64,000 nucleotides of DNA, from the NCBI GenBank assembly GCA_020137815.1, contig CM035351.1, positions 4,030,001 through 4,094,000 on the forward strand, read 5' to 3'. Made by a program: the position numbers and the translations under genes. Below are positions 3,909-55,455 of the stretch, one piece after another (position 1 is the first letter of the stretch; the number at the start of each line of letters is the position of its first letter). The notes beneath the pieces were generated by a model, which saw nothing but the letters and a program-made list of their open reading frames with translations, was not told where the DNA came from and ran no database searches. This stretch comes from Hormiphora californensis (lineage: Eukaryota > Animalia > Ctenophora).

Positions 3909-4005
3909 TAATGCAATCATTATCATTTAATGATTTAAAAACTGTTCATTGGAATTTGGAAATTTCCCACAAGACGATATTAACGCCAGTTACATTTCGT
4001 AGTCA

Positions 4006-5910
4006 ATGTTAACGGGTGATTTGCCCCAGCGTGTCAAGTGTACAGGCTGTGGCCAGCCCAGACTTCTCTTCTGCTACGACTGTGTAGAGCTATGTACTTA
4101 TGAAGCTGTGCCAGAACCCATTGCTCTCCCCGTGGAATGTCATATCATTAAACACATCGAGGAACATAGCAGTAAATCAACTGCAATCCATGCTCAGCTG
4201 CTCACCACCAATACAACACTGTTTGAGTTTCCTGGAGGACAGGTCCCACCTTACACAAGCTCAGGGGATGTGGTTGTGTGTTATCCGTACCAGCATTCCC
4301 TTAATATCCCTGAATACTGTGAAGAAATCAGGGAAGGGAAGCGGATTAAACCCAAAGTAGTGTTGTTTCTAGACGGCACATGGAGCAATGTACAGCAGAT
4401 AGCAGCCAAATACAGTCACTACCCGGCTGTAAAACTCGTCTCCCATGAGACTGATTTCTGGCGGAAACATATGCGACACACTCCCCCCACCTTCCTATCA
4501 ACGATCGAGGCGGTTTACTACTTTTACAGGGAGTACTGTGGTGCGCTACAACTGGAATACCCAATCACCCAATTAGACACTGTGCTACACCTATTCAGAT
4601 CACAAATCGAACTCCAGGAAAAGAAGGAGGAGAGTCAGCTGTCTGTGATAGAGGACCCTGAAGTTTTGCAGTATCTCCAGATGGGTTTATCCCACGAGAA
4701 ACTTCTTAAAATAACACGAAGTTTATCCATTCCTCCCAAGTTTACCACCCTTCGTGTTAACACACTTCACACAACAATTGAAGCAGCAGCTGCTAAATTA
4801 AAAGAACATTTGGGCAAGTCCTACTCAGTCTCCCGACACAAATCCCTACCGGATGTTTTGGTAATCTCAGGGAAACAGCGGAGCTCTCTGACTCTCTACC
4901 CTAACTCCGTTATTGTGGATAGAAAGTGTGGCAAGGCGGTCTTGAGAGGGGCTGATGTCTTTGCCCCTGGAGTTAAAGGCATGCCTCACCTTCCACTGGG
5001 TGCCAAGGTATCCATCCTAGTTGACAGGGACCACAAGTGCAAGAAGGGAGAAAAGCAGTTCACGGGAGCTACGGTCCACATTGGTAATGGAGTGGTGAAC
5101 CTCACTAGGGCTGATATCTACAAGAAGATTGTGAAATCTGGAGTGGCGGTGGAGGTCACCGAGAGACTAATATCTGTCCCCTCACTACATGGTTACCGTC
5201 CTGATCTCTTCTTTCTTCAAAACCTGCCATCTCTCCTGGTGTCCCATGTGCTAGCCCCTGAACCAGGGCACTCAGTGTTGGATATGTGTGCTGCCCCGGG
5301 CGGGAAAACAACCCACTTGGCTCAGCTAATGGGGAACTGTGGAACTATTGTAGCGTTAGAGAAAGTGGGACACAAAGTGGAGGAATTGCGGGCACTACGG
5401 GACAAACTTGGATTGTCCTGTATTACCATTCACAAGTGGGACTCCACTGAAGTGTTTGATGCTAAGGCTGACAATGATTGTTCCACCCCGCCATTTGGAG
5501 AGGGAACCTTTGATCGAGTGTTAGTTGATGTACCATGTAGTGCACTAGGTCAGAGACCCCAACTCTCCATCCAAAGCCGATATTCCCAGATCTCTTCTTA
5601 CCCGTCGTACCAGTGGCGTTTCCTGGCAGATGCGGCCCGTTTGTGCAAGGTGGGAGGTTCCCTCGTGTTCTCAACTTGTTCCCTGCCTGTCCAGGAGAAC
5701 GAGGGTCTGGTTGCTAGGTTACTACGGGAGAGAAGTGACATGGAACTGGTACCGGCACTACCACTCCTTGGCGAGCCAGGGTGTGCGGATCAGCTGACAG
5801 AAGAGCAGTGCAGGATGGTCCAGAGGTTTACACCAGACTCATATGGGGGTGTTGATTCTGATACTATTGGGTTCTTTTTAGCCAAGTTTATAAAATGTGC
5901 TAGTGTGTGA
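4006..5910 (+). CDS. DTWD1-NSUN6: Intronless fusion of a DTWD1-like tRNA acp3U transferase and an NSUN6-like tRNA m5C methyltransferase (PUA + MTase), 634 aa
   Basis: N-half: CxxC..FCYDC, IIKH..KSTAIHA, LDGTW (DXTW), LSTIEAVYYF. C-half: PPKFTTLRVN, AVLRGADVFAPG, QNLPS, LDMCAAPGGKT, FDRVLVDVPCS.LGQRP, FSTCS..ENE. Confidence 0.9.
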   Translation: MLTGDLPQRVKCTGCGQPRLLFCYDCVELCTYEAVPEPIALPVECHIIKHIEEHSSKSTAIHAQLLTTNTTLFEFPGGQVPPYTSSGDVVVCYPYQHSLNIPEYCEEIREGKRIKPKVVLFLDGTWSNVQQIAAKYSHYPAVKLVSHETDFWRKHMRHTPPTFLSTIEAVYYFYREYCGALQLEYPITQLDTVLHLFRSQIELQEKKEESQLSVIEDPEVLQYLQMGLSHEKLLKITRSLSIPPKFTTLRVNTLHTTIEAAAAKLKEHLGKSYSVSRHKSLPDVLVISGKQRSSLTLYPNSVIVDRKCGKAVLRGADVFAPGVKGMPHLPLGAKVSILVDRDHKCKKGEKQFTGATVHIGNGVVNLTRADIYKKIVKSGVAVEVTERLISVPSLHGYRPDLFFLQNLPSLLVSHVLAPEPGHSVLDMCAAPGGKTTHLAQLMGNCGTIVALEKVGHKVEELRALRDKLGLSCITIHKWDSTEVFDAKADNDCSTPPFGEGTFDRVLVDVPCSALGQRPQLSIQSRYSQISSYPSYQWRFLADAARLCKVGGSLVFSTCSLPVQENEGLVARLLRERSDMELVPALPLLGEPGCADQLTEEQCRMVQRFTPDSYGGVDSDTIGFFLAKFIKCASV

Positions 5911-11422: not shown

Positions 11423-11463
11423 TTTCAAACTTTTCAACACTACTTTAAACAAATTAATTTGAG
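11423..11463 (+). other. Spliced-leader-like exon at the 5' end of LINE A
   Basis: TTTCAAACTTTTCAACACTACTTTAAACAAATTAATTTGAG; identical over 40 nt to 44915-44954 (-); matches the ctenophore SL as I recall it (ends AAATTAATTTGAG). Confidence 0.8.
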
Positions 11464-11648
11464 GTTCCGTTTAACTGCCCCTCGCTAATCTTCTAAGCAT
11501 CTGCTTAATCCCCTCCAAAGACAAGACAAGAATATTCTGGTTTCTGTCTCTCTCTATATTAAGCGGACCTTGGAAGACCTCGTTGGGCTAAAGCCAAGTC
11601 GCCAAACCTTGGTGGAGCGGCTCCTCGCCCCTCTATTTACAGGACAGG

Positions 11649-12926
11649 ATGTCGGGAGTGGCAACCCATTATGGCCGATCAAACGATTACAAAGAGGAAT
11701 TTGCACGTAAGTTGTCTGATACAACCTTTGAAAAGTGCACTGGAATGACTGTTATGAAACACATGAAGGAAGGAAAAGCCGAAGCCCCGAGTCAAATTAA
11801 CAAGGATGTTATGTGGAAAGTTTTACTGATGTGTTATGAGTTTCTCCCCGCGGAATCCAGATGTAGCACCTCATCATCTGAGTCTGAACTGTCGACGGTA
11901 TCTATGACGTCTGATGACCTGAAAGATAGCTTCATGAAGCTGAGACAGGACCTCCTCGACACACTACCTGGATTAGTAAATGAGATTCTTGCGCCCACTG
12001 TTGCCAAGAAGAGACCGGAGCACCTGGAAATACAGAAATCACCACCCTCGACACCTGTCAAACGGTATGTCAATATCAAGGATAAAGGAGACAGTGAGAC
12101 TCCGATATGTGAGAAGAAATGGGCTAACTTGCTGAAGCCACAGGTTGAAACGGCATTGAGGAACATCCCTGTTCTTGATACCTCTGTTAACAAAAAGCAC
12201 ACGCAGCTGTACTTTGCCACTGATGATGACATGAAAGAAGCGGAGAAAGCTTTATCTCCATTCTTGGATGTTACATCAGTCGTCGAAAAAGAGAAGAAGA
12301 AGGATCCTCGTCTGATGATCAATGACCTTGATACAGACCTACTGAACAAGGAAGCACTGATGGGGGCACTTCTGAGTGAGAAGAATGAGACTGTGAAACA
12401 ACTTCATGAATCTGGCCATACCATCAAGATTGTTCATGTAAACCAGGCTGGGAAATATGCAGTCATCCAAGTACCTCCTGAAGTTCGCAAGGCAATCTCC
12501 AACAACAATGACAGGATTTTCCTCAAGCTCAAGCAACATGCTGTAAGAAACAGGTTCTATGTGACACAGTGTTTTCACTGCCAGAGGTACGGTCATGTAG
12601 CTGGATCAGTGTATTGTCCCAATAGGGACAAGAGCCCAGTCTGTGCATTTTGCTCGGGTGACCATGATACCCGTCAGTGCCAAGCCAGGAAGAGCAACGA
12701 TGGAGGAAAAATGAAGTGTGTCAACTGTGATGTAGGTGGAAGTAGAGAGGATAAGAAGTTCGCCAAATCTCACCCAGCGTCCAGCAATCTGTGTCCATTC
12801 TATGTCAATGCCAGAGGAAGGTTGATGGAGACGACTACTGGAGTAACCAAGGAGCAAAAAAACCTGTACATGACGAGGGCATGGGAGGATCTGAAAATGA
12901 AAAGGTATGGCGGATTGGTACGCTAA
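11649..12926 (+). CDS. LINE A ORF1, gag-like with 3 CCHC knuckles
   Basis: CFHCQRYGH..C, CAFCSGDH..C, CVNC..H..C. Confidence 0.9.
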   Translation: MSGVATHYGRSNDYKEEFARKLSDTTFEKCTGMTVMKHMKEGKAEAPSQINKDVMWKVLLMCYEFLPAESRCSTSSSESELSTVSMTSDDLKDSFMKLRQDLLDTLPGLVNEILAPTVAKKRPEHLEIQKSPPSTPVKRYVNIKDKGDSETPICEKKWANLLKPQVETALRNIPVLDTSVNKKHTQLYFATDDDMKEAEKALSPFLDVTSVVEKEKKKDPRLMINDLDTDLLNKEALMGALLSEKNETVKQLHESGHTIKIVHVNQAGKYAVIQVPPEVRKAISNNNDRIFLKLKQHAVRNRFYVTQCFHCQRYGHVAGSVYCPNRDKSPVCAFCSGDHDTRQCQARKSNDGGKMKCVNCDVGGSREDKKFAKSHPASSNLCPFYVNARGRLMETTTGVTKEQKNLYMTRAWEDLKMKRYGGLVR

Positions 12927-15847
12927 ATGTCCATTCGCTAATGAACAAGACAGCTGGAGTTTTGGATCACCTGGAGGATAATCAGTGTGACATCTGTCTG
13001 GTTCAAGAAACCTATCTCAAGAACTCAGACACAGCAAAAGTTCAGGAAATAAGAGAGTATGGATGGGACATTTATTCTTCTCCCAGAGCGGAAAGATCAG
13101 GAGGAGGAATTGGGGTTTTGTACAGAAATGGGGTCAGAGTGAGATTATCTCCGACAAGGAAAACATTCAAGTCTTTCCAAGTACAGGAAGTACTTATTGG
13201 AACGGGTGAAGGTATGGTTCGATTGTGTAATATCTATCGTCCTCCTTACACTGGAAAGGCACGGTTTACTGCTGCTTCGTTTCTTGAGGAATTTGTGGAC
13301 TACTTAGCTGATGTTAACCTGCGGACTGGGTCCCCCATCTTGATGGGTGATTTCAATTTCCAAGTACAAGACCTCTCTGACTTTTATGCAGAGAAGTTCC
13401 TAAAGCTCCTTGATTCTTTTGGGCTGGAGCAACTCACTCCATGTCAGCCGACCCACACCAGAGGTGGAACGCTTGATCTGGTGATCTGTCAGAGTGATAT
13501 CAAAACGAAGTTTCGATCTGTGGAAATACTGAAGGATGGTACTGAATCAGACCATTATATGGTTCTGAGTGAACTGGTCACTAAAACTGAGGATGTGGAT
13601 TTTCGAAGCAAGCAACAAATTGACATGTACAGAGACTTTAAATCTGTGGATCCTGAACTGTTCAGGAAAGCATTGCGGAACCTTGGACTGGAGGATCTTC
13701 TTGTAGCTGAATCACCCGAGGAAAACTTCCAGATCTATGAGAGGACTCTTGGCAACCTTGTGGAGAAATCTGTTGAACTCAAGAAAAGACGAAGAGGGAA
13801 GAAGTTAAGGCCGTGGAGAGAAGATGAAAGTGTCAAAGACGTGCTGAAACTACGCAGACGTGCTGAGAGGGCTTGGCGGAAGAACAAGACTCCGATACGG
13901 AAAGCCCAGTTGAATGACTTGAAGAGACAGTTTGGAAAAGTGGACAAGGACGCGAGGATTGGTTTCAACAAGAAAAATCTAGAGGAGTCAAAAGGTGATC
14001 CTAAAGGTTTGCAACGGAAGGTTAACCGCCTCCTGGGCAAAGCTGAGAGTATCCTACCGGAATCTGGTAATGATGGAAAGCTAGCAGAGGACTTCGCGGA
14101 ATTTTTCAGTAGTAAAGTGGATAAGATCCGTACATCAGTGTTTGAGGAACAAAGTGATCTGGAGGATGGAGAGGCTGTGAGGAATGATCCGGAATGCAAG
14201 CTTGCTCAGTTTGAGGAGGTGTCGGTGGAATATATCAAGGGCCTCATCAAGGATATGCCGGACAAGACATGTGATCTGGATATCATCCCCACTTGGTTGG
14301 TGAAGGGATGTATTCATGAATTCGCCCCGTGGATTACTACGCTGGTTAATGGATCTATTAGGAGTTCGACTGTTCCAGAGGCGTTCCAGCAAGCCCTAGT
14401 GTTTCCTACGATAAAGAATACTCAAGGTGACCGTGACAGTCTGCAGAACTACCGACCAGTGTCAAACCTGCTGTTTATCTCGAAGGTTCTCGAGAAGGTA
14501 GTATTGGATCAATTGACCTGCTACCTGGAGGATAACAGCCTACTGAACAAGAACCAATCAGGATATAGGGTTGGCCATAGTTGTGAAACCTTGTTAACCG
14601 GTATGTTTGAGGATCTACTTGAGGAAATGGATAGAGGAAATGTCATGGCACTTCTTTTACTGGACATGAGTGCTGCATTCGACACCGTTGACCACACCAA
14701 GCTGGTCCAAGTGTTGAATAGTCGGTTTGGAATCTGTGGAGCAGCGCTCAATTGGTTTGAGAGCTACCTTGGAAGCAGAAGCTACAGAGTTAACGTTCGA
14801 GGAAAACTCTCTGGAATTGTCAAGCTAGTATGTGGTGTCCCACAGGGTTCTCTGTTGGGACCTGTCTTGTTCCTGCTGTATGTGGAGGAACTCCAAGACC
14901 TTGTTGAACAGTATGGGCTGAGGATAAAACTATATGCTGATGACTCACAGTTATATATGAGTCTGGTTCCTCATGATGATGAAGGATGGCTAGCAGTGAA
15001 AGGTAATGCTGAGGATTGTTTGAAGGAGGTGAAGGATTGGATGGTGAAGCACTGGCTGAGGTGTAATGAGGCCAAAACGGAGCTATTGTTACTTGGAAAG
15101 AGTGGAGCTCTAGAGAAGCTAGCCTATGAACCCTCAATTGTTTTTAGAGGCACGGAAATCTTTCCAGTAGATTTTAAAGGAACTACAGGTAAAACCCTTG
15201 GCGTCTACCTTGACAGCCAACTCACTATGGAACGACAGGTTAACAGTGTCAAGAGACAGTGTGGTATGATCCTGAGGAACCTTTGGCAGATCAATCGATG
15301 TTTGGACCAGTCTATGAAGATCCTCCTTGTCAAACAGTTAGTTATTTCGAGGTTGGACTACTGTAACATACTGTATTGTGGACTCCCGAAGAAACACATC
15401 AACAGCCTACAGAAAACACTCAACTCTTGTGTTCGGTTCGTCTATGGTCTACACGGACATCAAGATGATTATGCTCCCTACCTGAAGGAAATGCATGTCC
15501 TTCCTATTGAACAGAGGATTGTGTTCAAGGCATGTCTTACAGCTTATAAGGTCGTTCATCGAACTGCTCCAGATTATCTAACCGACAAAGTGCCAGCGTG
15601 TGAGGATGTGGATAACTTGCGTTTTACCAGAGCCAATGCTGTTCCGGATGAGTTCAGGCTCCAGTACCCGAAACTCTCAAGTGTCAACGCTAATTCTAAA
15701 TTGAGGAGAAGGCGACCTTCTGTATTTCTACCCAGTCTGTGGAACGAACTTCCTTTGGACATCAGATCTCTTCTGTCTGTTGATTCCTTCAAGACAAGAC
15801 TTAAGACCCGACTCTTCACTGAGGCTTATGGCGTAAGTACTTCCTGA
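12857..15847 (+). CDS. LINE A ORF2 endonuclease/reverse transcriptase (entry via slippery site at 12857 or ATG 12881)
   Basis: LNVHS, VQET, IYRPP, MGDFN, SDH (APE); YRPVSNL, DMSAAFDTVDH, LYADD (RT); uninterrupted. Confidence 0.93.
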   Translation, partial: KKPVHDEGMGGSENEKVWRIGTLNVHSLMNKTAGVLDHLEDNQCDICLVQETYLKNSDTAKVQEIREYGWDIYSSPRAERSGGGIGVLYRNGVRVRLSPTRKTFKSFQVQEVLIGTGEGMVRLCNIYRPPYTGKARFTAASFLEEFVDYLADVNLRTGSPILMGDFNFQVQDLSDFYAEKFLKLLDSFGLEQLTPCQPTHTRGGTLDLVICQSDIKTKFRSVEILKDGTESDHYMVLSELVTKTEDVDFRSKQQIDMYRDFKSVDPELFRKALRNLGLEDLLVAESPEENFQIYERTLGNLVEKSVELKKRRRGKKLRPWREDESVKDVLKLRRRAERAWRKNKTPIRKAQLNDLKRQFGKVDKDARIGFNKKNLEESKGDPKGLQRKVNRLLGKAESILPESGNDGKLAEDFAEFFSSKVDKIRTSVFEEQSDLEDGEAVRNDPECKLAQFEEVSVEYIKGLIKDMPDKTCDLDIIPTWLVKGCIHEFAPWITTLVNGSIRSSTVPEAFQQALVFPTIKNTQGDRDSLQNYRPVSNLLFISKVLEKVVLDQLTCYLEDNSLLNKNQSGYRVGHSCETLLTGMFEDLLEEMDRGNVMALLLLDMSAAFDTVDHTKLVQVLNSRFGICGAALNWFESYLGSRSYRVNVRGKLSGIVKLVCGVPQGSLLGPVLFLLYVEELQDLVEQYGLRIKLYADDSQLYMSLVPHDDEGWLAVKGNAEDCLKEVKDWMVKHWLRCNEAKTELLLLGKSGALEKLAYEPSIVFRGTEIFPVDFKGTTGKTLGVYLDSQLTMERQVNSVKRQCGMILRNLWQINRCLDQSMKILLVKQLVISRLDYCNILYCGLPKKHINSLQKTLNSCVRFVYGLHGHQDDYAPYLKEMHVLPIEQRIVFKACLTAYKVVHRTAPDYLTDKVPACEDVDNLRFTRANAVPDEFRLQYPKLSSVNANSKLRRRRPSVFLPSLWNELPLDIRSLLSVDSFKTRLKTRLFTEAYGVSTS

Positions 15848-16902
15848 AGGCTTGTATCAGTTTTTTATCTCCAGTGTGTTTGGAACAGTTGTATCGGTTT
15901 TTATTTTAAGCATTTTTTGAGGGTTTGAAGCATGAGTGGACAGAGTGTGAAGCAGTGTGAATTTTGTTTACCAAGGATTCTTTTTGGACAGTTTATCATT
16001 ATATGTCAGTTATTTTCTTCAGTTTTTTTTCCCACGATATGTGAGCCGTTGTAAGTCAGTTATATTCCATTATGGTCTTGATAGAGTAAATTTTTTCCCT
16101 AGCTTTGTATCCCGCTCTGATTGTCTTTCAGTGGCAGCAGTTATCTCTTGATCTGTTGCCCCTGGAGGATATGGGCGGAATATAAGCACGTCTATTATTA
16201 TTATTATTATTAGATTAGGGGGACTATTTAGTGGATGTGACATATGAGGGCTTTGTGTTTAGGTGAGTGGGTGGCCGGTGGGGGGGGGTCGGTACAATAG
16301 CTATAGCAGGTAACTTGATACAATTGTTTGTTTTATTGTTTTCACTACGCAGCCTGTGCTGGAGGTTTTAATTTTGTGTGTACAATTTACCCATTACATG
16401 TATATTGTTTGTATAATAAATTGATTTTATGTTTTCAAATTCTGTACATTTCTCTCCTCTCCCCCTCTCTCCACCGCTATCTCTCTAATCTCTATCCCTG
16501 CATAGTTTGCCGTACATGTAGTTCCCTTGCACACACATTGACCCGGGATCTGGTGAGGCCGTGACGTCTCACGAGCCCACTCGATCACTCTGTCTCTCTT
16601 TTTAGTTCCATTGCATTTGATCCTCTCCATTTTGTGTGTGTATTAGCTATTTCGCGATTTCTCACCAATGTGTCATCAGATTGCATATAGAGCATGTTAT
16701 TCATTTGTTGTACAAGTTGTGTATGCACTATGCATATGATATAGCAAGTTGTTCTTTTCTTTACCTCCCTCCTCTTTATCCACCCTCTTTTCGTGCATAT
16801 ACCTACATCTACTTCTTCCCCGTATATATGTTAGTGCCCTTTCTTCTCCCTAACCTAACTACTAATCACTGTATAGTAACCCATATTTTCCTAACATTAG
16901 AA

Positions 16903-33824: not shown

Positions 33825-35755
33825 TCAACCCGTCCACTCAGAGGGAGCCAGTGTTTTCTGTGAGAATGCGTGAATTCCAGGGATCTCATCCTTCAACGCT
33901 GCATGGACCGCTTTGTGTCGTTTCAGCCGGGACATCCCCGTGAACTGATCCGAGACTATGACCACGGAGATCTTTGCTCCACAACCATCACTCTCGTCTT
34001 CTACCGTCTGAAAAGGGGGGGGGGTGGTGTAGAGGATACTCTGAGATGGGGTACCGAGGGGAAGGTACACAAGTGAGTAAGGAGTTACATAGCACGTCAA
34101 GCACAGAGGAGAGTTGCAGGAAATATTTTAGGGTGGGAGATATGGGCGTTACATAGCAATAAGATCAGGGCAGGGGGAGTTACATTTGGCAGAACAGGAT
34201 AAAACAGGTAGCCACATTTGATCAAACGAAGGGAGGGGAAATAATACACAACACTCGGTGGGGAGACAATACACTAGGGGGGGGGAAGATGATGTATACA
34301 TATCATGTTACTCACACCGGTACACACTACGCACACGTGTGTCCCAGATTCTGAAACACCAAAAAGCAGTCCAACATAGGTATCTTCACTCGACTGCTAT
34401 AGCATACAATATAATATACATCAGAGACACATAAAACAAACAAACATAAAACATCCAAGTTATACATAGGTGTTACTTGAACCTGACGTAGTGACAAGTG
34501 ACTCAAGGCGTAACTGTAGTAGTGGTACCCTTCGTGGGAAGCAGAGTCACCCCACGAAGGGTACCACCCAACTAAGTACCACATTGCAGTGCAACACCAT
34601 GACTTGTTGGCAGAGGCTAGATGCGTTGAGAGTTATAGTCAACCCCCATCGACAACAACCACCCCAGTAGGAAACTTCCATCATCCTGTGATCCGGGATA
34701 CCAGCCAAAATTTGGTCGGAACTCGGAGAAATGATTTGAGAATAATTTGAAACTTGCCATGCCCAAATATGGGTCATATTTATGATCCAGGGTGATTGTG
34801 TTGATAAAATTTTAAAACTTGTCGGGCGCCATGATTTGGTACTGTGCAAAGTGCACATTGTCAGTGTGTCGCTTGACAAGCCGTTTTCCGCGCGCTCAGA
34901 TCATGATCCGGAGGAAACTTTTGTGATCTCGATCACAAATTTGATACTAGGATACCAGCCGGCGGCTGGTAGATCTTGATCCCGCACGGCTGGTCCGCGC
35001 GCTCCAAATAGGATCCCCTGAATTGCCAATTTAACAGTGCTCGGTTAGCTCAGTTGGTAGAGCACGAGACTCTTAATCTCGGGGTCGCGGGTTCGAGCCC
35101 TGGGTTTAAATCTGACCTACTGACATTTTTTCACAAAAAGTTTTGGAAATTAATTTTTCTTATGACATAATCTTCTCTCCCTTTTTCTCTCTACTTTATT
35201 TCTCTCTCTCACACACATAATGATGATTTAACACATAATGATGATTTAACACATTTTTCCCCTGCCTTGGTGAATTCATGCCCGAAGGATGTTTTTAGCA
35301 CCAATACCAAATGATACCAAATGTATTGGTTACCATACCAACCACACTGGATACCATAGAAATCAGTCAAACATGCTCTTTGGGCACCAAATTCACCAGG
35401 AAATCCAATTTTGAAGTGTATTCATCAATTTTTCACCCAATTGTGGCAGAGAAACCTCGCATTATGAATACATAATGCAATAATTCTTGTTACCCTAAAC
35501 TTTGGGGCTCCGCAAGACCTTTTCAAAACCAACCAAAAAGAAGAAAAAAACCAGCCAAATTTTCTAGAAATTCAGATACCAGCCGATTCTTGGAAGTTTC
35601 CTACTGGGACAACCACATCGATTTAACTGCTCATCTCACTCTTCAAGTTGTAACACCACGTGGATGGCTATTGGATAGATGCGTTAAGTACTCACCAAAT
35701 GAGCCGGACTAAAAGCTTCCTTCAGCTTCGTTTCAACAGTGGCTGCAGTTGACAT
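33825..35755 (-). CDS. BOLA2: BolA-family protein, 2 exons
   Basis: MSTAATVETKLKEAFSPAHL|TVEDESDGCGAK..VSDQFTG..RHKAVH..IHAFSQKT; paralogue assignment is tentative. Confidence 0.85.
35039..35105 (+). pseudogene. tRNA-Lys(CTT) pseudogene or tRNA-derived SINE head
   Basis: A box TAGCTCAGTTGG, anticodon arm GAGA-CTCTTAA-TCTC, B box GGTTCGAGCCC; the 3' half of the T stem and acceptor stem is missing or degenerate. Confidence 0.75.
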
Positions 35756-39602: not shown

Positions 39603-42600
39603 GGTAGTTATTAGGGAAACAACACCACTTGATGGTACTTGTAACACAACTAGTTAGTTGCATCAACATTCTCTCAGTGCGCCCCAGGCTAGGGGGTAGG
39701 AACAGCCAACAACTAGTTAGTAGTTAATATCTCCTACTTCTCAACTAAAAAAACCTCACCTTAGCTGATGGTTTGGGTGGGGTGTACACTTGAGCGGTTG
39801 CCATGGGGATAGGTGCGGGTATTGTCATCTGCTGTAGACTCTTGCTCATCATCTGCAGGGTATTCTTCTCCAGGGCTTGTAACTTCCTCTGGTGGTCTCG
39901 GATCTCCTCTCGAATCAGGGTGTCCCGAGAGGGTCGTGGTGGTGATGGAGGAGGCAGCTTCATTATCTTACGGAACCTGAGGATGGATGTGTAACATTTA
40001 AATAAACTGATAATTAAATGAATAATAATAATAATACTCAAACTTATATCCTGCCCATATTCTACAGGGACAGCAGAGCTTTACAGATGCTGCCACTGAA
40101 AGAAACTCAGAGCAGTTAACTAACACTCGACCCAATTTAATAGACAACTAAAAAAACGGTGGAAAATCCAAATTATCCGGCTCACATATGTGGGAAAACA
40201 GATTAGGCTCATAACAGACAAAATTAGAAAAAAACTCGAAAAAGGCCACAGGTTAATTGTCACCACTGTCACTTGATCACTCCATATATATAGACACAGA
40301 TGAAATGTTCAGAGAACAGATTCTGAAACAACTGGGAAAACTGAAAAACGGAAAAATATTACACACTCGTGCTTCACTCATGCTGCAAACTCAAAGAATA
40401 AAGCTAAGTTAAAAACTTGTCACGAGGTAAGATACAGACCTAAGTACAATACTTACGCTAGACAGTACAGCGTGATGGGAGGAGTACAGGTACCTGAGAA
40501 AAAGAAGTAGGCTGGAATAAAGGAGAAAACAACCGGAACTAGCCTGATCCAAAGGCATCCACAAACAATCTTGTCTTTAAACCCGTTTTGAAAGATTCCG
40601 CAGTAGGCCGAGATCGCAACTCAAGGGGGAGTGCATTCCACAGATCTGGCAGGAGAACAGATGGTCTCCTTTTCCTCAGTTTAGAATTGGCATTAATGCT
40701 CGACAGCTTCGGGTACTGGAGCTTATAAGGGTCTGGAACAGCAGTCGATCTGGTACGGCAAGTAACATCAACGATATCTGTAGGTATTTGCTCGATGAGG
40801 TAATCTGGAGCACTTCCATGTACAATCTTATAGGCCATGAGACAGGCCTTAAAGATCACTCGTTGCTCCACAGGAAGAATGTGGGTTTCTCTCATGTAAG
40901 GGAGGTAGTCCTCTTGATGACCGTGGAGTCCATAGATAAACCTTATACAAGAGTTGATCACTTTCTGTAAACGAGAGATGAGCTTCATTGGCAAACCTCC
41001 GTAGAGGACATTGCAGTAATCCAAGCGGGATATAACCAGCTGCTTAACAAGAAGGATTCTGGTAGAGAAGTCTAAGCATCGGTGGACCTGCCACAAATTC
41101 CTCAGTAACATTCCACAGTTTCTTTTGACACTGTTCACCTGACGTTCCAATGTCAAGTTCTCATCCATATAAATACCCAGAGTCTTTCCGGTAGTACCTG
41201 TGAAGTCAACTGGGTAGATATCTGCATCTCCAAACCTAATACAGGGCTCAAAAGAAGGAGCTCCGTCTTCGACTCATTACATTTCAGCCAATGCTGAACC
41301 ATCCAAATCTTGATCTGATCAAGACACTCTTCTACTTTCCTCCTTGTGATATTCCATCCATTTTCATCAAGAGGGACTAGACTTACATATATTTGAGAGT
41401 CATCTGCATAGAGCTTGATTTTGAGTCCATATTTGTTTACCAGATCCTGTAGTTCCTCAACATATAAAAGAAACAAAACCGGTCCAAGAAGGGACCCTTG
41501 GGGCACTCCACAAATGAGGTAGATAATCTTCGAAAGTTCTCCTCTGACGTTGACTCTGAAATTCCTCGATCCAAGATAGCTAGTAAACCACTTGAGAGCT
41601 GTTCCTCTTATTCCAAATCTCCTCCTCAAAACATCCACAAGTTTAGCATGGTCAACCGTGTCAAACGCTGCACTCATGTCCAACAGGAGTAGAGCTACAA
41701 CGTTTCCCTTATCCATCTCCTGCAGTAGATCATCAAACATCCCCATGAGTAGAGTTTCACAGGAATGACCAACTCTATATCCTGACTGGTGAGAGTTGAG
41801 TAGGTCATTTTCATTCAAAGCCTGATTCAGTTGATCAAGGACAACTTTCTCTAGAACCTTAGAGACAAAGGGAAGGTTAGATACAGGACGGTAGTTGGAA
41901 AGGCTATCTCGATCACCATAAGGGTTCTTGATGGTTGGAAAAACCAGTGCTTGCTGGAACAATTCTGGAACAATACCTTGCCGGATAGAAGAATTGATAA
42001 TCTTAGTAAGAGTGGGGCAAAAACTTCCACACACTCTTTGATCAACCATGTCGGTATAAGATCAAGATCACATGTTTTATCAGACATGTTCTTAATGATC
42101 TTCTTCATCTCATCCTCAGAGACTTCCCTAAATTCCTCAAGAATACAATCCTTATTCAGGTCCACACAAGAGTCCACTTCCTCCACAGGAGAGTCCACAT
42201 CTGCTTTCACTGAGTTCCTGATTTTTTCCACTTTTCCAGCAAAGAAGTCCGCAAAATCCTCGGCTAGTTTACGATCACAATCCACATCTGGCAACACTAC
42301 CTCACTGTTTCCAAGTAGGCGGTTTAGTTTCCTCTGTAACGTCTTGGAATCCCCTTTTGATTCTTCAAGATCTTCTTTCAGATAGTTAGTCCTCGCTTCC
42401 TTATCAACTCTACTAAACATCTTCTTCATCACGTTATACTGCATCTTCGTAACAGGCGTCTTCTTGCTTCTCCAAGCTCTCTCCGCAGCCCGACGTCTTC
42501 TTAGTGCATCCCTGACATCATCATTGTCTCATCACGGGCGAACCTTTTTCACTTTCTTTCTTCTCTTCAAAAGGACAAAACTACCTACTAACTCCTTCAG

Positions 42601-45157
42601 TTCTCTTTCATAGATCTTGAACAAATCATCTGGGGAATCCAATTCAAACCGCCCCTCAAGGCCTCTTCCTCTGAGGGCCTTCATGAACAATACCGGGTCC
42701 ACTGATTTAAAGTCTCTGTAGGTGTTAACTCGATCCCGTTGCTGTAGGTTTCCAACCTTAGTCTCCAGTACGACTTCACTCAGGACAAGAAAATGATCAG
42801 ACTCTGTTCCCTCAGGATGTATTTCCACAGATTTAACTTTCTCCTCTACCTCCTTTGGACATATAACCAGGTCAAGAGTACCTCCACGATTGTGTGTTGG
42901 TTGCCTGGGGACAAGCTGAGAAAACTCATGTGAGTCTAGGAGTTCAGCAAGCTTCTTAGTGTAGAAGTTGTCCCTATCCTGCCATTGAAAGTTAAAGTCT
43001 CCCATAATAAGGGGAAGACCAGTCTTCAATACTAGCTCTGAGAGATAGTCTGTAAATTCCTCTAGAAACTTCGCTTCAGTGAACCTAGCTTTACCGGTAT
43101 AGGGCGGTCTGTAAACATTACATATCCGAGTAAGGTCCATTCCATTGCCAATTAAAATCTCCTGAATCTGGAACGATCGAAATTTCCGCACTGGTGATAG
43201 TTTCATCTTCACTCCATCCCTGTAGAGTATCCCAATACCCCCTCCTGCCCTCTCCGCTCTGGGGGATGAGAAAATATTCCAGCCATAGTCTCTTATCTCC
43301 TGAAGTTTAGCAGTATCACTAGTCTTCAAGTAGGTTTCCTGAATCAGACAGATATCACATTCCATGTCTTCAAGATGCGCTATAACCCCAGACGTTTTAT
43401 TCATTATCGAGTGTACATTTAGTGTGCCAACACGCCACGTCTCTTTACCTTCAGCTCCTCCCACGCCCTCGTCAGATAAGCGTTTTTTCTCTCCTTACTG
43501 ACACCACTTGTGTTTTCCATCAGTCTTCCTCGAGCATTAACATAATGCGGACACAAGTTACTTGATGCTGGATGGGATTTCGCATACTTCTTGTCATCCT
43601 TACTACCTCCAACATCACAGTTTACACACTTCATCCGATTGAGTTCATTCCCACTCTTCGCCCTACACTGTCTGGTGTCATGATCTCCTGCACAGAATGC
43701 GCATGTGGCGCTTTTATCTTTACTAGGACAATAGACAGATCCAGCTACGTGTCCATAACGCTGACAGTGGAAACACTGAGTAACGTAGAATCTGTCTTTC
43801 ACAATGTGCTGTCTTAATTTCAGGAAAATCCTATCTCGATTATCCGCAATGGCCTCTCGAACCTCAGGTGTAACCTTGAGCACCGCATACCTCCCAGCAG
43901 TGTTAACATGAATGACACTGACAGCATGCCCAGACTCATGTAGCCTCTTCACCACTTCATTCTTATCACTCAAGATAGCGTCCAGTAGCACTTCTTTGTT
44001 CAGCAGGTCATGATCCAGATCAGAAATCATTAGCCGGGGGTCCATCTTCTTCTGCTTCTCAACAAACGGAGTAACATCCAGAAACGGGGACAGCACTTTC
44101 TCTGCCTCTTTGAGGTCATCATCAGTTGCAAAAAACAACTGAGTACCCTTTCTGTTCACCGACGTGTCCAAGACAGGGATGTTCTTCAGAGCTTTCACAA
44201 CCTTCGGTTTCACTACCATTTTCCACTTCTCCTCACACATCGGAGTCACTCCTTCCTCATTGCTGTCTTTGATGCTCATATACCGTTTCACAGGGGTAGC
44301 TGGAGCAGGCTTCTTCTCTTGCTGACCAGAACTACACGCTACTTCACTCTCCTCTCGGTTCTTCTTCAATATCTCATTAACTACTGGGGCCATGAGTCCA
44401 GGCAGGCTATCCATCAACTCTTGCTTCAGTTTTGAGAAACCATCCTTCAGATCATCACTCGAAAACGAGACTCCAGAATCAGACGATGGTGTAGGACACC
44501 GGGAACTATCCGGAAGCATCCGGTAACACATAATCAACATCTGCCAAAGATCCTTCTTCGTAGGTCCACCTGGAGCATCCATAGGCTCACCCGGGGTACC
44601 AGCATCCTCCTCCAATTTTTTCCACACTGTACTGCCTTTACATTTGTCAGAGAAGCTCGTGACAAGGAGCTTACCTTCGAAGTCCTTCTTCGTTCCACTT
44701 TCATACTGGGGTGCCAATCCCGACATTCTATATCCTGTAACAGTGGCGCGAGGATCCGATCCACCAAGATTTGGCTTCCTGGATTTGGCTCAACGAGGTC
44801 TCCCAAGATCTGCTCAACTTAGAAAGAGACAGGAACACCAGGCTTGTCTTGTCTTGAGATAAGAGGGATTGAGCAGAAGTCTTAGAAGAGTAACGAGGAG
44901 CAGTTGAACGGAACCTCAAATTAATTTGTTTAAAGTAGTGTTGAAAAGTTTGAATGGAAATAATTCAGCGGGAAGAAAGATGTGATGAGGAGACTGAACA
45001 AGTTACACTGTGCTGACAAGTCCAGAGGTAACCAGTGGTAACCAGCGGTAACCACTACTCAATTTTACCTGTCATTTAGACTCATGCCAGTTTGAGTTCG
45101 GAGTAGTACCTTGATGTTACTGGTACTGTCCCTATATCGAGTACTACGAGACGACAT
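38912..45157 (-). CDS. CHTOP: Chromatin target of PRMT1 (FOP); intron 1 holds LINE B
   Basis: Exon 1 ..KVLLRTQTGMSLNDR|FRK; RGG-rich middle; C-terminus SLDNELEKYMSQSKGYLDSQLDSYM. Confidence 0.85.
40021..44954 (-). mobile_element. Full-length L2/CR1-group LINE (element B), SL-like 5' end, ORF2 disrupted
   Basis: ORF1 43419-44726 intact; ORF2 fragments between 43464 and 40539 with frameshifts (~42530, ~42020) and a small deletion (~41250); (ATT)n tail 40021-40036. Confidence 0.95.
44915..44954 (-). other. Spliced-leader-like exon at the 5' end of LINE B
   Basis: Reverse complement is TTCAAACTTTTCAACACTACTTTAAACAAATTAATTTGAG, identical to 11424-11463. Confidence 0.8.
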
Positions 45158-51295: not shown

Positions 51296-54200
51296 TATGT
51301 GTGAGAAGAAGTGGACTACTGTCGTGAAGACAAAGGTGGAGAAAGCATTGAATAAGATTCCAGTCCTAGATCTTTCAGTCACCAAGAGGAGGACAAATCT
51401 TATGTTTGAGACCGATGAACAGTTGGAACAGGCGAAAGAAGTTCTTTCACCGTTCCTTGATGTTTCTCCCGTAGTGGAGAAGGAGAAGAAAAGAGATCCT
51501 CGCATCATGATCAATGATCTTGACCAAGACCTGCTGGAAAAAGATCGCCTTCTGTCAGAGATTGTCAGTGATAAGAATGAGTCTGTGAAGAGACTAGTTG
51601 GGGAGGGTCACCTGGTGAAGGTGGTCCATGTAAACAGAACAGGAAGATATGCAGTGTTCCAGGTCTCTCCAGAAGTGAGGAAGGCGATATCAGAAAGGAA
51701 GGACAAGCTATTCTTGAAACTTCGACAGCATTCAGTGAGGAACAGGTTTTATGTCACGCAGTGTTTTCACTGCCAGCGCTTTGGCCATGTAGCAGGATCC
51801 ATCTACTGCCCAAACAAGGATAAATCTCCGGTTTGTGCCTTCTGTACGGGAGATCATGACACTAGGAGTTGCCATGCCAAGAAGGAAAATGTAGTGAGCA
51901 GGATGAAATGTGTCAACTGTGATCATGGAGGAAGCAGAGAGGACAAGCGCCATGCTCAAAGTCACCCAGCCTCCAGCAGTATGTGTCCATTCTATGTAAA
52001 TGCTAAAGGAAGACTCATGGAGAGTACCAGTGGAGTAACGAAGCAGGAAAAAAACGTGTACCTGACGAGGGCATGGGAGGATCTGAGAGGAAAACGTCTT
52101 GGAGGATTGGCACACTAAACGTCCACTCAGTTATGAATAAGACGTCAGGTGTAATTACACACTTGGAGGAAAAAGGATGCGACATCTGCTTGGTACAGGA
52201 GACTTATCTGAAACAGAGTGACACAGCTAAACTTCAGGAGATTAGAGACTATGGTTGGAATATCTTCTCCTCGCCTAGAGCGGAACGTTCAGGAGGTGGA
52301 ATTGGAATCTTGTACAGGGTTGGTGTCAAGTTGAAATACACTCCGGTAAAAGCTAAGTTTAAATCGTTTCAAGTCCAGGAAGCCCTTATTGGAGGAGGAA
52401 AAGATGTGACGAGGCTGTGCAATATCTATAGACCTCCGTATACTGGCAAGGCACGGTTTACAGAAGCCCAGTTCTTGGATGAGTTTACTGATTATTTGTC
52501 AGAGTTGGTCTGCAAAACGGGGAACCCTATCCTGATGGGGGACTTTAACTTCCAGGTTCAAGATACTCAGAACTTCTATGCGAAGAAGTTGCTTGGACTA
52601 CTTGACTCTCTTGGATTTGATCAGCGGGTCCCACTACAACCTACTCATGTTCGTGGTGGTACTTTGGATCTGCTTCTCTGCCAAAAAGACAGATATTCTA
52701 AGGTTCAATCAGTTGAAGTATTTCCTGACGGAACGACCTCTGATCATTTTCTTGTATTGGCGGAGCTGTGTATTGAAACTGTAGCAAGTGAATACAAGAC
52801 TCGTGAAAAAGTGGACATGTACAGGGATTTCAAGGCTGTTGATATTGAAATACTTCGATGTGCTTTTAGGAGTGTGGATTGGAGTGAAGCGATGGAATCT
52901 GGATCAGCTGAGGAGGTTTTGTGTATTTATATGAGGAAACTTGAGGAACTTGTGGATAGGACTGTCCCGTTGAAGAGGAGAAAGAAGAGAGGAGCTAAGC
53001 TGAGGCCATGGAGAGATAATCCAGAGGTGCGTCAAGTTCTTCGTCAGCGGCGGAATGCTGAGCGAGCCTGGGAGAACAATAAAACCAGCGTCACGAAGAA
53101 GCAGTTCAATGAACTCAAGAGGCAGTTTGGGCGTGTTGACAAGGAAGCGAGGACGAACTACGTCAAGGAAGACTTGGAGGAGTCCAGAGATGACCCCAAA
53201 GCACTTCAAAGGAAATTGAACCGTCTACTTGGTAATACTGAGACCTTTATGCCTGAAACCACAGATAAGCGGAGGTTAGCGGATGACTTTGCGGACTTCT
53301 TTGTTGGAAAAGTTGATAAGATCCGGTCTACTGTTATTGGAGAGAAGAATCTGAGGACTAAGAGGAACCCTATTCATCAGACACCCGTCTGTTGTTTTGA
53401 GGAATTTGAGGAAGTTTCCCCAGAGAAACTAAAGAGGATAATCAAAGACATGCCAGACAAGACATGTGATCTTGACCCTATACCGACTTGGTTAGTGAAG
53501 GGGTGTATGCATGAGCTAGCTCCAGTCTTGTGCAGGTTTATTAACCTATCTCTTGGATGTTCCAGTGTTCCTGAACTTCTCCAGCAAGCTTTGGTGTTTC
53601 CAACGATTAAGAACCCTTATGGCGATAAGGACACTTTGACCAATTATCGGCCAGTCTCCAACCTATCTTTTGTCTCCAAGCTTCTTGAAAAGATAGTTCT
53701 AGAGCAGCTCAACTCGTATCTTAATGAGAACGAGTTACTAAATAAGCATCAATCAGGTTACAGGGTGAATCATAGCTGTGAAACCCTACTGATGGGTATG
53801 TTTGATGATCTCCTTCGGGATATGGATGAAGGAAAGGTCGCAGGCCTCTTTCTATTAGATATGAGCGCCGCTTTTGACACAGTGGACCATGGAAAGCTGC
53901 TAGAAGTTCTTGAAGAACGGTTTGGAGTGAGAGGTTCTGTCTTGGATTGGTTCGCCAACTATCTACAAATGAGGACTTATCGGGTAAACGTGGAAGGGGA
54001 ACTTTCGAGGATTGTCTCTCTGATATGTGGAGTTCCGCAAGGTTCACTGCTTGGACCTGTGTTGTTTTTACTGTATGTGGAGGAATTGCAAGATTTGGTC
54101 AAACCGTATGGCTTAAGGATTAAACTTTATGCTGATGACTCGCAATTGTACATCAGCTTTGTTCCAACTGATGAGGAAAACTGGAAACTGGCAAAGGAGA

Positions 54201-55455
54201 GGACTGAGGAATGCTTGTCAAGTGTGAAAGAGTGGATGAGTGAGCACTGGCTAAAGTGCAATGAGGCAAAGACTGAATTCCTGCTGTTAGGCAAAAACAG
54301 CGCCCTGGATAAGATGGTCTATCAGCCCACTGTGGACTTTGGTGGAGTGGAGATAAGCCCAGTGGACTTTACGGGGAGTACAGGGAAAACACTAGGAGTG
54401 TTCCTTGATAGCAACCTCTCTATGGAGAGGCAAATCAACAGTGTTAAGAGGCAATGTGGTTTGTTGTTGAAGAATCTATGGCAGGTAAATCGGTGTCTAG
54501 ATAGATCGACGAAGATACTCCTTGTTAAGCAGCTCATCATTTCAAGACTGGATTATTGTAATATCCTTTACCATGGCTTACCTAAGAAGCTTCTCAACAG
54601 CCTTCAGAGAGTCTTGAACTCGTGTGTCAGATTTGTTTATGGCCTACACGGTCACCAAGACACCTACATGCCATACTTGAAAGAATTGCATGTTCTTCCT
54701 GTGGAACAACGAGTCACGTTCAAAGCATGCCTGATGGCGTACAAGATTGTACATGGATTGGCCCCTGACTACCTGCAAGATCAGGTCCCTGTTGATGATG
54801 GACTTCATGTGATCCGGGCTACTAGAGGAAATGCTTGGCCTGATGGCCTCAAGCTGAAGTACCCTAAGCTATCAAGTGTCAACGCGACTTCCAAGTTGAG
54901 AAGAAGACGTCCGTCGGTTTACCTGCCTGAAGTCTGGAATAGGCTTCCCCTTGATCTGAGAGCTGTTGAGTCTGTGGAATCTTTCAAGTCTAAGCTCAAG
55001 ACTAGTCTTTTCACTGAGGCTTTTGGTGAGACTGGACTGTCCTCTTAACACTCTCCTTCTTGCTGAGGTATGTGCTCTAGCTGGTACCCGTTTTTAATTA
55101 TTTTTCTGTATTTAAGCTCGTGGCGAGCAGAAGTGTGAAGCATAAATTGGGGTTTTTCATAGCACGAGTGTTTTTCTGTGTTCCAATATACGGACTTTTA
55201 TATCATTTTTTAGAGTTCCAGGACTCTAACTCAGTCTGTTATGTAATCAGTCACCGATAGTTATGTGAGCCGATAGTAATGTGAGCCGGTGTAATTTTTC
55301 TTTATTATTTTTTGTTCTATTAGGGATAAGTTGGCGAGGTCTTACCAGTATATTAACCGTTCAGATCATCCTTCAGTGACAGCAGCAGTTTCGCTGCTCT
55401 GTCCCTGTCGGATATGGGCGGAATATAAACATAGTTATTATTATTATTATTATTA
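51296..55455 (+). mobile_element. 5'-truncated L2/CR1-group LINE (element C) with intact ORF2
   Basis: Begins mid-ORF1 (MCEKKW); ORF2 52073-55048 uninterrupted; (ATT)n tail; possible AATATGT TSD or microhomology. Confidence 0.95.

Follow-up and report, generated by a model that had tools for sequence, protein, structure and literature searches.

A retroviral-type slippery heptamer is conserved at the ORF1/ORF2 junction of a ctenophore LINE family and probably directs -1 ribosomal frameshifting

How ORF2 of a LINE is translated is an old open question, and the cases tested so far, L1, SART1 and Zorro3, point to separate initiation. SART1, whose ORF1 is of the CCHC type (PMC10275272, PMC4120745), uses termination-reinitiation at a UAAUG (PMC10275272). 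The main review of frameshifting favours separate initiation for L1 and lists the HeT-A gag as the sole non-LTR case of a frameshift; it also counts A_AAA_AAC and U_UUA_AAC with the heptamers on which mammalian ribosomes shift most readily (PMC5009743). For the Dictyostelium elements TRE5-A and TRE3-A, the legend of a review figure says that a -1 frameshift is required for ORF2, citing sequence papers of 1992 and 1998 (PMC5911963), and we found no experiment, slippery site or conservation analysis for these elements in the accessible parts of PMC5911963, PMC5006619 and PMC3159450. The word 'frameshift' is absent from the main text of two surveys of the CR1 group (PMC4120745, PMC13343379). A tested frameshift at a LINE ORF1/ORF2 junction was not found in the literature searched, although older subscription papers or Repbase entries may mention such overlaps.

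The DNA analysed here (the window) is a stretch of 64,000 nucleotides from Hormiphora californensis (contig CM035351.1, positions 4,030,001 to 4,094,000). It contains three LINE copies, A, B and C, whose reading frames and junctions are located as follows, in window positions.

11423..16212, + strand: LINE copy A, full length, ORF1 and ORF2 intact
11649..12926, + strand: ORF1 of A, 425 aa, with two predicted RRM-like domains, three CCHC-type knuckles and C-terminal helices
12857..12863, + strand: slippery heptamer A_AAA_AAC of A, predicted -1 shift site, ORF1 codons CAA AAA AAC
12864..12926, + strand: overlap of A, read in both frames; the final 20 ORF1 codons and the stop, and in the ORF2 frame the linker and the first endonuclease strand
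12863..15847, + strand: ORF2 of A from the predicted shift site, 994 codons, APE endonuclease and reverse transcriptase
40021..44954, - strand: LINE copy B, full length, with (TAT)n tail; ORF1 (44726-43419) intact, ORF2 in four reading-frame pieces
43482..43488, - strand: heptamer A_AAA_AAC of B, ORF1 codons AGA AAA AAC
51297..55455, + strand: LINE copy C, 5'-truncated within ORF1 (start approximate), with (TAT)n tail; ORF1 stop at 52116-52118, ORF2 intact to 55048
52049..52055, + strand: heptamer A_AAA_AAC of C, ORF1 codons GAA AAA AAC

It had been predicted from the window alone that A_AAA_AAC lies in the ORF1 frame of all three copies and that ORF2 follows in the -1 frame, and both statements hold for A, B and C. 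The copies show hallmarks of APE-type LINEs, namely (TAT)n tails in all three and, in C, a start inside ORF1; no target-site duplication longer than 6 nt was found for A or B. ORF2 matches PF03372, PF14529 and PF00078, that is, an APE endonuclease followed by a reverse transcriptase, and its C-terminus has what we take to be an L2-like look. An AlphaFold model of ORF1, built on a 38-sequence alignment (pLDDT 79), shows two alpha/beta domains followed by Cys/His knuckles; its best natural fold matches are tandem RRMs (E 2e-4), and the Pfam matches to zinc knuckles are weak (7 and 3 of 38 members). As modelled, ORF1 is of type I in the sense of Khazina and Weichenrieder, with RRM(s) directly upstream of CCHC knuckles. 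This type has been described for Jockey, L2 subgroups 2, 8 and 10, and CR1 subgroup 3 (PMC4120745).

Two further features of the window were noted. At 4003-5910 (+), a single frame of 635 codons contains a DTW domain (PF03942) and an RsmB/F-type RNA methyltransferase (PF01189), so that two tRNA-modifying enzymes may be joined in one protein here. At 35046-35103 (+) lies a partial Rfam tRNA match of 36 bits, the only Rfam match obtained; it was not called by ARAGORN and is possibly a SINE head or a pseudogene.

A scan of metagenome contigs yielded 47 loci, 36 of which had an ORF1 match followed by an endonuclease and were taken as relatives (median protein identity 48%). The 11 other loci (L037-L047), weak matches outside the family, were set aside; nine of them were reused as controls, and L044 and L046 showed no endonuclease. 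The relative L036 was kept out of the tree, and both L026 and L036 were kept out of counts made on 37 elements. An in-phase A_AAA_AAY was present within the open ORF2 frame in 34 of the 36 relatives, 48-81 nt before the first endonuclease Asn, and a heptamer of the form X_XXY_YYZ occupied the ORF1 zero frame in 3/3 window copies and 35/36 relatives, counting a replacement site in L026. L036 has AAG at the site, but this copy is broken. In 36 of 37 elements, 48-60 nt separate the signal from the ORF1 stop that follows it. The original prediction had named AAG or AAT codons here in active relatives as a refutation, and the comparison did not refute it: AAG occurs in no intact relative, and AAT, which stands instead of AAC at the Asn codon of 4/37 elements, still fits X_XXY_YYZ.

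A tree of 38 elements, which fall into 18 clusters at 70% identity, was then used to count third-position changes in 291 codon columns, all well filled, from ORF1 and the endonuclease. The two third positions of the heptamer were the sole columns of the 291 with 0 changes, against a median of 13. The Lys codon was AAA in 37/37 elements, whereas both AAA and AAG occur in the other columns with a conserved Lys. The amino acid before this Lys varies while the heptamer is kept, as had been claimed for the window copies: the residue underwent 15 changes on the tree among T, A, S, E, R and Q, and its third base was always A (38/38). Elsewhere in the bodies of the 37 elements, Lys-Asn pairs are written as A_AAA_AAY in 5 of 166 cases. 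Since a protein motif cannot fix AAA over AAG, nor the third base of a changing residue, the heptamer is very probably more than a by-product of Lys-Asn. As a separate observation, in-phase slippery heptamers seem to be avoided outside the junction, the same 5/166 comparing with roughly 20 expected from codon use (ORF1 and ORF2 bodies, 38 elements).

In L026, an intact element (ORF1 418 codons, ORF2 993 codons), the family site is degraded to A_AGA_AAT, and an in-phase U_UUU_UUA (L026:1716-1722) is found 9 nt beyond the lost heptamer. In a background of 41,579 codons, U_UUU_UUA occurred in phase once and any canonical in-phase heptamer 45 times, so that the chance of meeting any canonical heptamer per 16 codons is 0.017.

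What is conserved is a run of A. One extra base inserted in it by RNA polymerase II would give the same frame change, and thus the same fusion, without a ribosomal shift; such transcriptional slippage is known for IS elements and potyviruses (PMC5009743). The invariant run, however, has only 6 A, is bound to the codon phase and is followed by C or U, never by G (37/37), and the motif that L026 uses is a different one, of in-phase tRNA slippage. Moreover, an extra base would be copied into new insertions, and an in-frame fusion at the site was seen in 0/36 loci. Transcriptional slippage is, in our judgement, very improbable. Among 7,993 long candidate proteins no natural in-frame ORF1-ORF2 fusion was found, which is weak evidence, and the variant rows listed for the DNA contigs of 4 runs included no indels of the A run. 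One 151-nt contig from an RNA library crosses the site without a gap at depth 4; it may be DNA and was given no weight.

The point at which ORF2 opens coincides with the heptamer. From the heptamer onward there were 0 stops in the ORF2 frame in 37/37 elements, while upstream windows of equal length were stop-free in only 25-30%, and in 25/37 that frame is closed by a stop 3-9 nt upstream of the heptamer. When the first endonuclease motif is aligned to exonuclease III, its Asn falls in the first strand of that enzyme, TWNVN, and the homologous Asn is required in L1 and Zorro3 (PMC1965478). No ATG precedes this Asn in 26 of the 37 elements, and in 17 not even a GTG, CTG or TTG is found before the first endonuclease strand; the 11 elements with an in-frame ATG before the Asn include copies A and C. 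In B, the TAA 6 nt upstream of the heptamer in the ORF2 frame and the GTG at 43464 were both found as described in the original prediction, and the next in-frame ATG lies past the first endonuclease motif, 5 codons after its Asn. By itself, the GTG of B is weak evidence because B is a broken copy, with ORF2 in four pieces, but L004-L009 of the same subfamily likewise lack that ATG, and ORF2 is intact in L007 and L009. In the control LINE loci, which represent about four families, 8/9 had an ATG at or near the start of the endonuclease and no heptamer, and L037 had neither.

These data bear on whether ORF2 restarts by termination-reinitiation, as in SART1 and mammalian L1, at the ATG at 12881 or at a non-ATG codon, the heptamer then being a by-product of Lys-Asn. 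In A and C, an in-frame ATG lies 43 nt before the ORF1 stop (12924-12926 in A) and overlaps a UGGGA, which resembles the TURBS reinitiation motif of caliciviruses, and the last predicted helix of ORF1 begins at the Lys-Asn pair. ORF2 of L1 is also said to start independently of AUG (PMC5009743, PMC1965478). The ATG at 12881, however, is not a conserved start: it is present in only 5/37 elements and arises from an Ala-Trp pair of ORF1, and UGGGA occurs within 90 nt of the stop in 11/37 and at one shared place in 6. ORF2-frame ATGs at -20 to +23 nt of the ORF1 stop were found in 12/37, 10 of them after the Asn, and the ATG directly after the ORF1 stop is in the ORF1 frame, not that of ORF2, in 11 of the 12 closest elements. 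Reinitiation also leaves unaccounted for both the silent-site conservation (AAA, and the third A of a changing residue) and the swap in L026, and we therefore consider it very improbable as the general route. Restart at 12881 may still act as a second route in A and C, or in the subfamily of the window.

The ends of the elements were also characterised.

11423..11463, + strand: spliced-leader exon at the 5' end of A, equal to the final 41 nt of the 44-nt leader of Hormiphora californensis
44915..44954, - strand: spliced-leader exon at the 5' end of B, 40 nt
16120..16212, + strand: 3' terminal predicted hairpin and (TAT)n tail of A
16120-16192, + strand: 3' hairpin region of A
55375-55434, + strand: 3' hairpin region of C
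40110-40037, - strand: 3' hairpin region of B

The spliced leader of H. californensis has been published as a 44-nt sequence (PMC8527503), and the first 41 bases of A agree with its end letter for letter. In 3 of 4 oligo-dT RNA runs, the cover of A piled onto its first bin (depth 760, 129 and 75), and the contigs behind this pile-up continue with unrelated sequence after about 11463, a pattern expected of a spliced leader. Leader-like 5' ends, picked by eye, were present in 24/37 elements, the exon ending in TTGAG; the relatives with such an exon are L001, L004, L005, L007-L015, L018, L019, L022, L025-L028, L030, L032, L034 and L035. The distribution of leader types does not follow the element tree: L018 and L035 have one in common at a distance of 2.09, while L012 and L014 (0.14) differ. 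The simplest reading is that the RNA of the element is trans-spliced to the host leader and then copied with it, and our guess is that the last AG of the integrated leader serves as the acceptor in the next round. Elements specific for spliced-leader genes include SLACS, CZAR and NeSL; here, the flanks upstream of the leader differ among A, B and the relatives, which argues against insertion into spliced-leader RNA genes. No leader-headed ctenophore LINE was found in a literature search that had most subscription papers outside its reach. Of the 718 leader copies that the Hormiphora genome is reported to contain, many may be LINE heads. A 6-pyruvoyl tetrahydropterin synthase gene (PF01242; 10916-11344, +) ends 78 nt before the leader of A on the same strand, and read-through from it could supply RNA that gets trans-spliced.

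With a leader at the 5' ends of A, B and many relatives, and with trans-splicing resolving polycistronic RNAs in other animals (PMC7986045), a separate ORF2 message might come from internal trans-splicing of the leader, or from cis-splicing. Such a message needs its own ATG, however, and 26/37 elements lack one before the essential Asn; neither the heptamer nor the opening of the ORF2 frame at that point is explained. We rate this explanation as extremely improbable. Reinitiation, transcriptional slippage and splicing are all disfavoured because each fails on the silent-site conservation together with the L026 swap.

At the other end of the elements, the last 70 nt before the tail are predicted to form a long irregular hairpin, followed by a motif resembling GGGC...AUAUAA. 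The hairpin region was also located in L001, L002, L009, L010, L017, L018 and L027. The tail is (TAT)n in the subfamily of the window and (TTTCA)n in L010, L017, L018 and L027. This region is likely the recognition site of the reverse transcriptase.

Taking these results together, we conclude that these LINEs very probably use programmed -1 ribosomal frameshifting at A_AAA_AAC, which would yield an ORF1-ORF2 fusion of about 1,400 residues, a reading drawn from comparative sequence data. The Gag-Pol-like fusion put forward in the original prediction thus finds support in the site, its phase, the silent-site conservation and the opening of ORF2. The slip itself, its rate and the role of the fusion protein are our reading of these observations and of the missing conserved start codon.

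Retroviral precedent would place a hairpin or pseudoknot 5-9 nt downstream of the site, and the original prediction had proposed to look for one; neither was found to be conserved at that place. Folding z-scores downstream of the site were ordinary (means -0.1 to +0.6), H-type pseudoknots were predicted in 4/37 elements as compared with 3-24 at control positions, and consensus structure prediction across the junctions came out empty. A recurring 5-bp hairpin showed no covariation, and 437/500 shuffles were equally good. Pairing of the element's 3' tail behind the site was considered as well. In 23 long elements there was no consistent best tail match, and when the own tail was compared with other tails in 10 elements, 1 of 6 tests gave p 0.04 and the rest 0.22-0.79; tail pairing was rejected for this family. 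Three bases, in contrast to any structure, are invariant in the 37 elements: U11, A12 and G22, counted from the first base of the heptamer (in A, 12867-12868 and 12878). All three are kept even in L033, whose ORF1 stop occupies positions 11-13. A change of G22 would be silent in ORF1, and in ORF2 the residue at this place can be Gly, Asp, Ala or Glu, which suggests that it is the base that counts. Our best guess is that a very slippery heptamer acts with a short sequence signal (U11, A12, G22), rather than with a pseudoknot, in a shift of low efficiency.

More distant ORF1 proteins were compared at the protein level. Of the best 150 of 3,241 matches, 148 were used, P0006 and P0038 being dropped for want of a C-terminus, and 11 further representatives without the last knuckle were removed, leaving 137; this set overlaps partly with the loci, and the two are therefore not independent. 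Among these matches, 105/137 have Lys-Asn shortly after the last knuckle, and 45 of the 105 end within 4 residues of it. A residue whose codons never end in A precedes the pair in 1/105, versus 109/466 at other Lys-Asn pairs (p 7e-10). A terminal Lys-Asn is absent from 32/137, as judged from protein sequences only. Its place is often taken by Asp-Phe-Leu, Asp-Phe, Asp-Pro-Phe or Lys-Lys, each of which, at the protein level, fits another slippery heptamer (P0190, P0194, P0198, P0199, P0236, P0246, P0273, P0290, P0197, P0207, P0210, P0303 and P0037).

Other collections were searched with the ORF1 and ORF2 alignments. Neither matched the viral collection, and ORF1 gave no match in prokaryote genomes; with ORF2, 52 stray LINE loci (L048-L099) were obtained from the latter, and the 8 that reach towards the endonuclease start were examined. 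Only L077, a distant AT-rich element, has a recognisable ORF1; A_AAA_AAC stands directly before its ORF1 stop, and there is no ATG. L062 has an in-phase A_AAA_AAC with no recognisable ORF1 and was excluded from the counts, L054, L061 and L089 have long open N-terminal stretches, and L053, L065 and L078 are broken. The presence of eukaryotic LINE fragments in prokaryote bins and isolates (L048-L099) points to contamination of those assemblies with host DNA. The ESM Atlas returned unnamed eukaryotic clusters and weak Gag-like leads only.

Of the ORF1 clusters with the highest similarity, some three in four end in Lys-Asn. On this basis, we tentatively propose, at somewhat less than an even chance, that a LINE branch extending well beyond comb jellies uses a -1 frameshift, promoted by a new kind of structure-free signal 3' of the site (U11-A12...G22), to make an uncleaved fusion of the Gag-Pol type, and that its ctenophore members need no promoter of their own, the final AG of the inserted host leader renewing the 5' end by trans-splicing.

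Translation by frameshifting would proceed as follows. The RNA of the element would receive the host leader by trans-splicing, and scanning ribosomes would reach the ORF1 ATG. Most ribosomes would keep the frame and stop 20 codons past the site, giving the 425-aa RNA-binding ORF1 protein, while a small share would slip back one base with the Lys and Asn tRNAs on the site, and would then read through a linker of roughly 15 residues into the endonuclease (405 + 994 = 1,399 aa in A). Through its ORF1 part the fusion would carry the enzyme, in a fixed proportion, into the RNA particle coated with ORF1 protein, much as Gag-Pol does, though with no protease to cut it. If this is true, the working enzyme is a fusion of 1,400 residues, annotations that start ORF2 at its first ATG lose a strand needed for catalysis, and anyone building such elements synthetically has to retain the junction. 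The absence of a hairpin or pseudoknot would in turn point to a frameshift stimulator of an undescribed kind.

With respect to known systems, the elements described here resemble in build the LINEs of the Jockey superfamily and CR1 group, with which they share APE and RT domains in ORF2, predicted tandem RRM-like domains before the CCHC knuckles and a tail of short tandem repeats. With SART1 and mammalian L1 they have in common a bicistronic LINE RNA and a low output of ORF2, but no stop-start of the SART1 type was seen here in the ORF2 frame. Drosophila HeT-A is likewise a non-LTR element with a frameshift, although its shift lies inside gag and it has no reverse transcriptase of its own. TRE5-A and TRE3-A, APE-type non-LTR elements of the L1 clade, also have two overlapping ORFs and a stated -1 frameshift for ORF2, but belong to another clade and to a host of another kingdom. 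A_AAA_AAC and U_UUU_UUA are used in the gag-pro of MMTV/HTLV and the gag-pol of HIV-1. Retroviral and other viral -1 signals resemble those found here in the heptamers, in their phase and in the joining of a Gag-like zinc-knuckle protein to a reverse transcriptase polyprotein; what differs is that this is a non-LTR element, that it lacks a protease and that neither a hairpin nor a pseudoknot is conserved 5-9 nt downstream. This LINE family thus has what is probably a recoding signal of the retroviral type, for which the comparative support is unusually strong although a classical stimulator was not found. It offers a sharply defined case in which the retroviral solution can be tested in a non-LTR element, including a natural compensatory swap of the slippery site.
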